From Candidatus Micrarchaeota archaeon (GTDB lineage Archaea; Micrarchaeota; Micrarchaeia; Norongarragalinales; UBA8480), in assembly GCA_043805855.1 (NCBI GenBank), contig JAZDHP010000020.1, positions 1 to 14,515 of the forward strand: a DNA stretch of 14,515 nt, in the 5' to 3' direction. The position numbers and the translations under genes were made by a program. Of the stretch, positions 4,620-6,026 are shown piece by piece. The notes under the pieces are model-generated. The model searched no databases. It was not told the origin of the DNA and saw nothing but the letters and a program-made list of their open reading frames with translations. Each line of letters begins with the position of its first letter. Position 1 is the first letter of the stretch.

Positions 4620-5105
4620 CTAACCCTTCGGCTTTTCATCTAGCGGCGCTCTCATCCGGCCGATAACTGGACGAAATGCTTTACCTTCGTGTTTTGGCGC
4701 TTTGACAAAAACAAGCGTTCCCCGTCCCCTTGTTCGTCCCTGCATTAAAACATGCGTTGCGCCTTTTTCTTTTAATTCTTTTAGCCATGGGTTATTACTG
4801 AAGCGTCTAAGTTCGTTTCCTAATCTAAGTGTTTCTCGCCGCACTTCTCTGTTGGCGTATGTAGCTCCAACTGTGCTAGCAGCTACAATGGGTGCACCAA
4901 TATATTTTTGCTGGTCATTGGGAGTTATAGCCCAACAAGCGCCCAACATAGCAGCTATAGGTACTAACACATTTCTTGCTGTCCTTAAATGTAATAAATC
5001 ACTAATTCTTTCCCGAATTGCAGGTGGCAACTCCTCAAATTGCATTTTCCCAACTACTTTGCCATAGTGAAGTGTTGTCCGCGGAGCTTTTTCAATAAAC
5101 GCCAT
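4620..5105 (-). CDS. Hypothetical basic protein with a central hydrophobic helical hairpin (161 aa from ATG 5105)
   Basis: Long open frame with two small-residue hydrophobic segments (VLVPIAAMLGACWAI and YIGAPIVAASTVGATYA). ATG 5105 is preferred over TTG 5141 because a TATA-like element (5127-5134) lies about 25 nt upstream of it. Confidence 0.65.
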   Translation of the reverse strand: MAFIEKAPRTTLHYGKVVGKMQFEELPPAIRERISDLLHLRTARNVLVPIAAMLGACWAITPNDQQKYIGAPIVAASTVGATYANREVRRETLRLGNELRRFSNNPWLKELKEKGATHVLMQGRTRGRGTLVFVKAPKHEGKAFRPVIGRMRAPLDEKPKG

Positions 5106-5173
5106 ACCAAAATGAAGCTTTTTTCCTTTAAAAACCCACAATGCTTTTCAACTTACTTTCTTCTATTAATTGT

Positions 5174-5531
5174 TAGTGGCGGGGGAGTGGAACAGCTTAC
5201 CGTGTCACAAGTTGCGGCTGTCAAAAGCGCGCTTTGTGTTTCGGAGGAACTTCTGCCCTTCTAGTAGTCTGTAAAGACGATCCATACAACTTGCTTAAGG
5301 TGAGTGGTTGGGGAACAGAAACGATACTCGTTCGACACGAGAATGACGAACAGGACGTTGTGTTGAAAGAGATGAAACGGCTTCGACCGTGAGAGTCCCG
5401 TAAGGGAGCTAGAAGCAAGGTGATTTTCACCGCTTAGTCAAATGTTGTTCAGCGCCGGTTTTCAGTTCATTTGAATTGAAACATTTCAAAGGCGTTTAAC
5501 AGAAGGTAGGGTACGGCTCCTACCGCCACTA
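5174..5531 (+). ncRNA. rnpB: Archaeal RNase P RNA (type M-like, with extra helices)
   Basis: CR-I GAGGAACTTCTGCCC (5244-5258) and CR-V AACAGAAGGTAGGGTA (5498-5513) form P4 with a bulged U. P1 is TAGTGGCGG..GGAG / CTCC..CCGCCACTA, P2 is GAACAGC/GTTGTTC and P5 is CTTCTAG/CTAGAAG followed by CAAGG. CR-II AACAGAAACG, CR-III GATGAAACGG and CR-IV GCTTAGTCAAATG are present. Confidence 0.95.
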
Positions 5532-5570
5532 CTTATTTTATAAAAAAGAAAAATAAAAGAAAAAACGAAA
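5532..5570. terminator. Probable bidirectional oligo-T terminator region between rnpB and the convergent secreted-protein gene
   Basis: T-run on the plus strand directly after P1, then long A-runs (T-runs on the minus strand). Confidence 0.5.
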
Positions 5571-5594
5571 GAACTAATTCTGTTGTTTAGCTGT

Positions 5595-6026
5595 TTATTT
5601 GTCGAAGAATGCAGATATTCTGCAACCTGCGCCAGCGTTAGTTAGACTGTTTATTAGCGGGGTTACTTCATCTAAATGTAAATAAAGATTTGAATTGCGG
5701 TCATTTGGTAATTGTCTTGTTGGCTGGAAGTTTGCTAAAGTTATATTATTAATTTGCGCGCCAGTTGGTTTTGTAATATTAAGGTTACAGGTTGATACTC
5801 TGCCGTTCTGGCCATAAGTCGCTTCATTAGCTGCTATTTTGTATCCACTCGCTCCAATTGGAACATATGGCAAATTAGGAGCCAAATATATTTCAACGTA
5901 GTTAGATCCGCTGCTTGTTGGGCTAGCTGCGGTTACGTAGCCGGTTAAGTTTGGTCCAACTAGAAGCACAGCTGCAACGAGTGCAACAATTGCTGCTATT
6001 TTAATTGTGTTTTCTTGCTTTTTCAA
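5595..6026 (-). CDS. Hypothetical secreted or membrane-anchored protein
   Basis: TTG start preceded by a strong SD, AGGTGA (6033-6038). Basic N-terminus and hydrophobic helix followed by NLTGYV. Asn/Thr-rich ectodomain with sequons NLT, NIT and NIT and two Cys. Confidence 0.8.
   Translation of the reverse strand: MKKQENTIKIAAIVALVAAVLLVGPNLTGYVTAASPTSSGSNYVEIYLAPNLPYVPIGASGYKIAANEATYGQNGRVSTCNLNITKPTGAQINNITLANFQPTRQLPNDRNSNLYLHLDEVTPLINSLTNAGAGCRISAFFDK

Follow-up and report, generated by a model that had tools for sequence, protein, structure and literature searches.

A type-M-like RNase P RNA from a genus of Micrarchaeota with a short hairpin just inside each strand of P5

The window analysed here, a 14,515-nucleotide stretch of DNA from a member of Candidatus Micrarchaeota, carries an RNA gene on its forward strand (5174-5531) that raises the question of how much the region between P5 and P7 can vary in an RNase P RNA. 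An earlier note, based on a fold made by eye, had described this gene as an RNase P RNA with a type-M-like core and two additional tetraloop hairpins that flank the P5/P7 junction, and had suggested that it might represent a distinct architecture. Is this a functional RNase P RNA, and are the two hairpins new elements, or known helices in an unfamiliar setting?

A permissive Rfam search of positions 4900-5800 identifies 5174-5531 (+) as an archaeal RNase P RNA gene (rnpB). The match to RF00373 extends from 5180 to 5525 on the plus strand and covers the full length of the model (1-288; 50 bits, E 6.3e-13), and is the only RF00373 match in the source genome (1.03 Mb in 67 contigs, 92% complete). 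At gathering thresholds, Rfam gives no match in the window; the RF00373 cut-off is 84 bits, and the gene is skipped by standard annotation because its 50 bits fall below this value. The low score is due to inserts in P3, at the site of the 3' hairpin and at the P19 site, all of which are described below. Scores for the rnpB of this genus are 46-52 bits, the lowest among the full-length (model 1-288) RF00373 matches in 68 genomes of the order. The RNA has an MFE z-score of -3.56, and none of 100 shuffled sequences folds equally well.

The gene is transcribed as a discrete RNA. In a public metatranscriptome run, a single 375-nt contig lies on 5176-5530 with no differences and coincides with the predicted RNA (5174-5531), although contigs cannot fix the ends; in addition, 5204-5463 is present in a DNA run. 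Cover of 4900-5800 by the RNA run is partial, and the uncovered parts are not taken as evidence. The same RNA contig has 20 more letters past the 3' end that are unmatched to the window, and many 31-letter contigs of the RNA run match an A-rich stretch at 5539-5573 with 2-3 differences. On the 5' side, the sequence TTTAAAAACCCACAA (5127-5141), which is located 33-47 nt upstream of the RNA 5' end, is identical in one genome of the same genus (G002) and has one change in another (G003); between it and the RNA 5' end, the sequence differs among these two genomes and the source genome (G000). One possible identity for this element is a TATA/BRE-type promoter, in which case the 5' leader would be short.

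The genome also contains genes for Pop5, Rpp30, Rpp29, Rpp21 and L7Ae (PF01900, PF01876, PF01868, PF04032 and PF01248, all above Pfam cut-offs), and no gene for HARP (PF08745) was found in the 92%-complete assembly. Judged from sequence, the stretch is a functional gene for the catalytic RNA of a five-protein archaeal RNase P, for which pre-tRNA cleavage is the predicted activity. The RNA is a variant of a known enzyme, and the nature and role of RNase P are unchanged.

The structure was evaluated with four RNAs of the same type: that of the source genome, those of G002 and G003, and one from a single metagenome contig (L039:385-786), which was the only match in one metagenome scan with an exact pattern. 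Two scans of viral_contigs gave no further RNA of this type. In another genome of the genus (G001, 71% complete), neither the model nor BLAST yielded a match, which does not speak for absence of the gene there. The four sequences make up the rows of alignment A3, on which all structure-pair counts and shuffles were run. Altogether, 98% of the 252 cells of the alignment pair, and 11 pairs are changed on both sides, which none of 500 shuffles reach; slid controls give 35-56% paired. A broader comparison drew on 42 Micrarchaeota RNAs (34 from the order of the source genome and 8 other contigs), with landmarks taken from a MAFFT alignment. For a wider and heterogeneous sample (the "order of G068"), the 30 best-scoring loci were folded, and 49 lower-scoring matches were left out.

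All five conserved regions (CR-I to CR-V), which the earlier note had listed as present, align to RF00373 with high posterior probability: GAGGAA at 5244, ACAGAAACGA at 5316, GAUGAAACGG at 5371, GCUUAGUCAAAUG at 5432, and AACAGAAGG..UAC at 5498. The sequence elements that it had listed, namely hairpins at 5267-5278, 5396-5407 and 5419-5431, P9 at 5289-5305, and P10/11, are all found at the stated places. In the MFE structure, the whole RNA is closed by P1 at 5174/5531; the 5' strand of P1 (5174-5188) pairs with 5516-5531, with A5522 bulged (14 pairs counted, 94.5% of cells paired). P2 is formed by 5190-5196 and 5444-5450 (6 pairs counted, all cells paired, 1 compensated). P3 (5200-5244) is elongated to 45 nt, with a 34-nt insert in its loop according to the Rfam alignment and with invariant CCG/CGG pairs. 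CR-I (GAGGAA, 5244-5249) is followed by the 5' strand of P4 (5251-5257), which pairs with 5505-5511, within the Rfam-aligned segment of CR-V and the P4 3' strand (5498-5514). The P4 pseudoknot is intact in the four RNAs, having 7 pairs with all cells paired and one G-U/G-C change.

P5 could be placed more precisely than before, as a firm 7-bp helix of 5258-5264 with 5409-5415, in which all cells are paired and 4 pairs are compensated. P9 (5289-5305; 6 pairs, all cells paired, 1 compensated) was refined by comparison to A5289-U5305 plus CUUGC/GUGAG, with the loop UUAAG; loops of this type are kept in relatives, and widely across the phylum. P10/11 is formed by GGUUGGGG (5306-5313) and CUUCGACC (5381-5388), with 8 pairs, 93.8% of cells paired and 1 pair compensated. 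The segment at 5314-5380 comprises CR-II, P12 and CR-III as aligned by Rfam, and the base of P12 (5327-5329/5369-5371) changes from CUC/GAG to CCC/GGG in relatives. P12 also contains a motif, GAAUGACGAACAGGACGUU, that is near-identical in relatives and is the putative L7Ae site. A possible contact between the P9 loop UUAAG (5295-5299) and CUUAG of CR-IV (5433-5437) was considered and rejected: its 5 bp are invariant in the four RNAs, and relatives change both sides to the same letters (by eye), as expected of a near-palindrome or chance match.

The C domain is type-M-like, as had been proposed. J5/15 (CAA) and a minimal P15 occupy 5416-5431; P15 is a 5-bp hairpin of invariant pairs (GGUGA-UUU-UCACC, 5419-5431), and CR-IV (GCUUAGUCAAAUG, 5432-5444), which the Rfam alignment places with top posterior probability, follows directly. 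L15, P16, P17 and P6 are absent. Archaeal type A is excluded, since there is no sequence for a P15 internal loop, P16, P17 or the P6 pseudoknot between 5416 and 5444. The span from J5/15 to CR-IV is 16 nt here and lies within 13-21 nt for each of the 42 Micrarchaeota RNAs in the comparison, all of which share this type of C domain. Type M is defined by the lack of L15, P16, P17 and P6, together with the lack of P8, according to the accessible parts of two sources (PMC4919922, PMC3579882). None of the six tRNA-like matches in the genome has an encoded CCA, which fits an RNA without the CCA-binding loop of L15.

The two hairpins at issue are positioned close to P5, one on each strand. The 5' hairpin (H1; GUCU-GUAA-AGAC, 5267-5278) follows P5 at a distance of 1-2 nt and precedes P9 by 10 nt. 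The 3' hairpin (X; UCCC-GUAA-GGGA, 5396-5407) is flanked by the 3' strand of P10/11 on one side and that of P5 on the other. Comparison with relatives, a check that the earlier note had proposed, indicates that both are real: each is conserved in all four RNAs, with 100% of cells paired and with compensatory changes in two of its four pairs. The X stem has 4 bp in G000 and L039 and 3 bp in G002 and G003. The note had also emphasized that the two loops are identical (GUAA), which is correct for this genome and does not extend to its relatives, where each hairpin has a GNRA loop in three of the four RNAs (GUAA, ACAAA, GUAA and GCAA for H1; GUAA, GCAA, ACAA and GAAA for X). The 3'-terminal loop adenines are present in all eight cases.

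We favour, with somewhat better than even confidence, a reading in which this is a functional type-M-like RNA that has lost P8 and retains a weak P7, with H1 and X arising from the P5-P7 internal loop. The order of elements in the S domain would then be the 7-bp P5, H1, the weak P7, ACA, P9, P10/11-P12, the 3' strand of P7, X, one nucleotide, and the 3' strand of P5, so that two short, mostly GNRA-capped hairpins would sprout from both strands of the internal loop.

The candidate P7 pairs UCCAU (5281-5285) with GUGAG (5389-5393). Across the four RNAs its strands are UCCRU and GYGAG, which give U.G, C.A, C-G, R-Y and U.G; 80% of cells are paired, and the C.A position is unpaired in all four. 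The earlier description of P7 pairing as weak is apt, as only one of its five positions covaries and one is a mismatch throughout. The strands are contained in two linkers, AUCCRUAMAA (5280-5289) and GYGAGAR (5389-5395), that are nearly invariant in the four RNAs. Within the conserved cores of these linkers (AUCCRUA and GYGAGA), the only variable positions are 5284 and 5390, and these covary, being A-U in G000 and L039 and G-C in G002 and G003. The 3' strand of the candidate helix directly follows P10/11 with no gap, and J7/9 is a 3-nt A-rich linker (ACA); the same geometry is found in P8-less P7-P9-P10/11 three-way junctions, which are frequent among the best 30 RNAs of the wider sample. The change at the sole covarying pair coincides with the main phylogenetic division among the four sequences, and the background rate of such changes is appreciable: 6 of 99 arbitrary all-paired stems (at least 3 bp, in unpaired columns) show a compensatory change, one of these being the true base of P12. 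By nearest-neighbour energy, the fold with P7 is 0.8-2.2 kcal/mol worse than that without it, and such energies do not separate the two junction models. The comparison establishes every other helix of the model; from the one covarying pair in four RNAs and from the geometry, we infer that P7 forms, with about three canonical pairs. A different pairing, between AUCC (5280-5283) and GGGA of X, is ruled out, since L039 has GGUU there.

Other arrangements of this junction occur in other Micrarchaeota lineages. In L040, L041, L049 (the RNA of G068) and L044, P9 and P10/11 are the only elements enclosed by a short helix (CCCG/CGGG or GCC/GGC). This helix is preceded by one or two hairpins, and another, of up to about 40 nt in L041, precedes the 3' strand of P5.

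The alternative that survives best is that H1 is simply P8, positioned beside P5. P7 would then be lost, or would correspond to the inner UAG/CUA of the 7-bp helix, the junction would be a five-way junction, and X would be the sole new element. We consider this a serious but minority possibility. The two hairpins that lie between P5/P7 and P10 conventionally carry the names P8 and P9, and RF00373 aligns H1 of the source genome to the P8 columns, which have GUAA as the consensus loop; the posterior probability is only 0.5-0.6, however, and H1 of L039 is not aligned to P8. The earlier note had itself named as grounds for refutation an alignment showing an ordinary P8 together with an already described 3' insertion, or hairpins neither conserved nor covarying in relatives; the present results do not refute it on these grounds, and leave identification of H1 with P8 weakened and yet alive. 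That identification gains from the relatives, as a hairpin abutting P9 is retained in every other genus of the family; in the nearest sampled genus (G007), a canonical 5-bp P7 (ACUUU/AAAGU) encloses P8 and P9, and the P8 loop there also contains GUAA. A P8 in an RNA without L15, P16, P17 and P6 is, moreover, already described in the accessible part of one paper (PMC3579882), and the slightly better energy of the fold without P7 points in the same direction. So does the lack of room for a P7 3' strand in at least 14 of the 34 RNAs of the order (L002, L005, L006, L009, L012, L014, L016, L018 and others), in which 11-14 nt separate CR-III from J5/15. In these, a single 4-5-bp helix closes the P8/P9/P10 junction, with no room for both P5 and P7.

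The position of H1 argues against its being P8. Junction folds of all 42 RNAs place a hairpin, which is P8, at a distance of 0-1 nt ahead of P9 in 30 of the 38 others, whereas 10 nt separate H1 from P9. In 27 of the 38, the 5' strand of P5 is followed within 0-2 nt by a hairpin; this is an additional element, located as P5.1 is in bacteria, and H1 abuts P5 in the same way. The gaps along this strand are typically 0, 4-10 and 0 nt, or 7-15 and 0-1 nt in RNAs without the extra hairpin, and are 1 and 10 nt in the four RNAs of the present type, where the hairpin abuts P5 and nothing abuts P9. The loop does not discriminate P8 from a P5-abutting hairpin, because several of the latter (those of G037, G017, G012, G031 and G013) also have GNRA loops. 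Finally, identification of H1 as P8 would leave the conserved, covarying linkers unexplained. By position, H1 probably corresponds to the hairpin found next to P5 in most relatives, P8 having been lost.

Hairpins at the site of X are also found elsewhere in the phylum. The distance from CR-III to J5/15 is 9-22 nt in 24 of the 42 RNAs and 23-66 nt in the other 18, and a hairpin folds in this interval in 15 of the 42. In a second family of the same order (f9; G019, G024, G028, G032, G036, G040, G062, G063, G065 and G066), all ten RNAs have a hairpin before the 3' strand of P5 (6 of 6 that were folded, and 4 of 4 that were read by eye). These are located 0-1 nt before this strand, and all of their stems differ. 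The f9 RNAs resemble the RNA described here in also having a hairpin that abuts the 5' strand of P5, a weak P7 candidate (of the UGCA/UGCA type), and a minimal P15. They differ in that they keep P8 (loop UGCRAUAC) abutting P9, in that their 3' hairpins are longer (5-12 bp) and have a GAAA loop in only 2 of 10 cases, and in that they have no insert at the P19 position. The sequence comparison indicates that an arrangement of one hairpin just inside each P5 strand is not unique to the genus, and that the genus adds to it the probable loss of P8. As an architecture it is not confined to this RNA, with 27 of 38 others having a hairpin on the 5' side and 10 of 10 f9 RNAs one on the 3' side.

What these hairpins might do is suggested by their location at the hinge joining the C domain to the S domain, where H1 and X may act as struts or as platforms for proteins. 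In other RNase P RNAs, the hinge is braced by P6, L8-P4 and L18-P8 contacts, as set out in the accessible part of one source (PMC8457005), and in bacterial type B by P5.1-P15.1, as set out in those of two others (PMC5066622, PMC12974513). It is conceivable that, after the loss of P6, P16, P17 and P8, two tetraloop hairpins took over the bracing, which would make this arrangement convergent with the P5.1-P15.1 bridge of type B; we put this forward as a tentative proposal.

A less eventful explanation is that H1 and X, although genuine helices, are neutral expansion segments particular to the lineage, at a site that tolerates them, with no part in folding or catalysis and with the protein subunits doing the bracing. 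Both sites do vary among the families of one order, in which hairpins may be present, absent, or 3 to 12 bp long; within the present group the X stem is one pair shorter in G002 and G003 (3 bp) than in G000 and L039 (4 bp), and each of the two hairpins has a non-GNRA loop in one RNA. A 2026 survey, in its accessible part, likewise describes archaeal losses of P6, P16 and P17 as generally tolerated by means of proteins, with no added RNA segments (PMC12974513). Neutrality is harder to reconcile with the compensatory changes by which pairing of the two stems is preserved in all four RNAs, with loop adenines retained at the 3' end in 8 of 8, with nearly invariant flanking linkers, and with the occupation of the same two sites in a second family (f9), and we regard this explanation as rather unlikely. 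That the RNA is a decayed, non-functional copy or a chance match to the model, as a score of 50 bits against a cut-off of 84 might suggest, is very improbable in view of the single RF00373 match in the genome, the intact conserved regions and P4 pseudoknot, the covariation across four RNAs, the protein subunit genes, and the discrete contig in the RNA library.

Compared with archaeal type M, the RNA has the same C domain, with no L15 loop, P16, P17 or P6 and with a plain P15 hairpin. In the favoured reading, it also shares the lack of P8 and a three-way junction of P7, P9 and P10/11. Type M RNAs depend on five proteins, the genes for which are present here. The RNA differs from type M in its two extra hairpins between P5 and P7, one per strand, in the reduction of P7 to a candidate helix of about 3 canonical pairs, in its long P3, and in carrying, where P19 would be, a hairpin of about 46 nt. 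The two also differ in phylogenetic placement, type M being euryarchaeal and the present RNA coming from a DPANN lineage.

The accessible part of PMC3579882 describes a P8-containing variant of type M, with what is called a "typical P8 stem," in Archaeoglobus profundus, A. veneficus and Ferroglobus placidus. If H1 were P8, the present RNA would resemble this variant in keeping P8 and in having lost L15, P16, P17 and P6. It would differ in that its hairpin abuts P5 and is 10 nt from P9, without a convincing P7 enclosing it, and the variant has no counterpart of X.

The bacterial type B RNA of Bacillus has its P5.1 hairpin just after the 5' strand of P5 and has lost the P6 pseudoknot, both as here, and P5.1 is said to form a replacement bridge at the domain hinge (PMC5066622, PMC12974513; accessible parts of both). 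Here, in contrast, there is no P15.1 partner, P15 being a 5-bp hairpin; the tetraloops are GNRA-like; and a second hairpin is present on the 3' strand. The resemblance would be one of position and possible role, with no common descent implied.

The hairpin insert at 5451-5496 is located between the 3' strand of P2 and CR-V. It is about 46 nt long; the Rfam alignment shows an insert of about 45 nt here, and in the MFE structure the hairpin is closed by AGCGCC/GGCGUU. This is the same place as that of P19, between the 3' strands of P2 and P4, and P19 is reported from various archaeal clades with variable length (PMC12974513, accessible part). It is long in this group: the four same-type RNAs have 54-101 nt, insert included, from the P2 3' strand to CR-V, versus 9-10 nt in most relatives. 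Inserts at the P19 position are also present in G005, G009 and G011 (35 nt), G018 (58 nt), and G023 and G039 (21-22 nt), as well as in L038 and L042.

In the literature on RNase P RNA in DPANN lineages, with the survey supplement outside the scope, we found no paper on the structure of the RNA and no description of either hairpin. The 2026 survey includes 298 archaeal RNAs; the tip of P12 and the end of P3 are the only sites of archaeal expansion that its accessible part names, and its supplement may show these elements (PMC12974513). The same part describes P5 and P7 as fully conserved in Archaea and Bacteria (PMC12974513). H1 and X would add a third archaeal expansion site beyond these two. 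More generally, Micrarchaeota show unusual plasticity in the P5-P7-P8 region, which is commonly regarded as part of the conserved core, with hairpins on either strand beside P5, P8 present or absent, and P7 weak or absent. These RNAs are natural variants with which one may ask how the two RNA domains are kept together in an RNase P rich in protein. If the bracing proposal is true, the RNA would belong to a structural class that is not yet in the literature, and would be a counter-example to the generalisation, as worded in the accessible part of the survey, that proteins compensate without new RNA (PMC12974513). On a practical level, annotation pipelines miss an essential gene, rnpB, in this genus, where its scores are 46-52 bits against a cut-off of 84.

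Few tRNAs were identified in the source genome. Five tRNAs score above the RF00005 cut-off, and six matches are found at E<=0.001 (C31, C35, C5, C29, C8 and C53); default ARAGORN reports only 3 tRNAs in the 92%-complete, 1.03-Mb genome, and its permissive output, consisting of about 200 false tRNAs with huge introns, was discarded. Introns of an unusual kind, split tRNAs, or losses during assembly may explain the small number of matches. Three of the tRNA matches are 62-65 nt in length and look partial, and two have inserts of about 40-50 nt.
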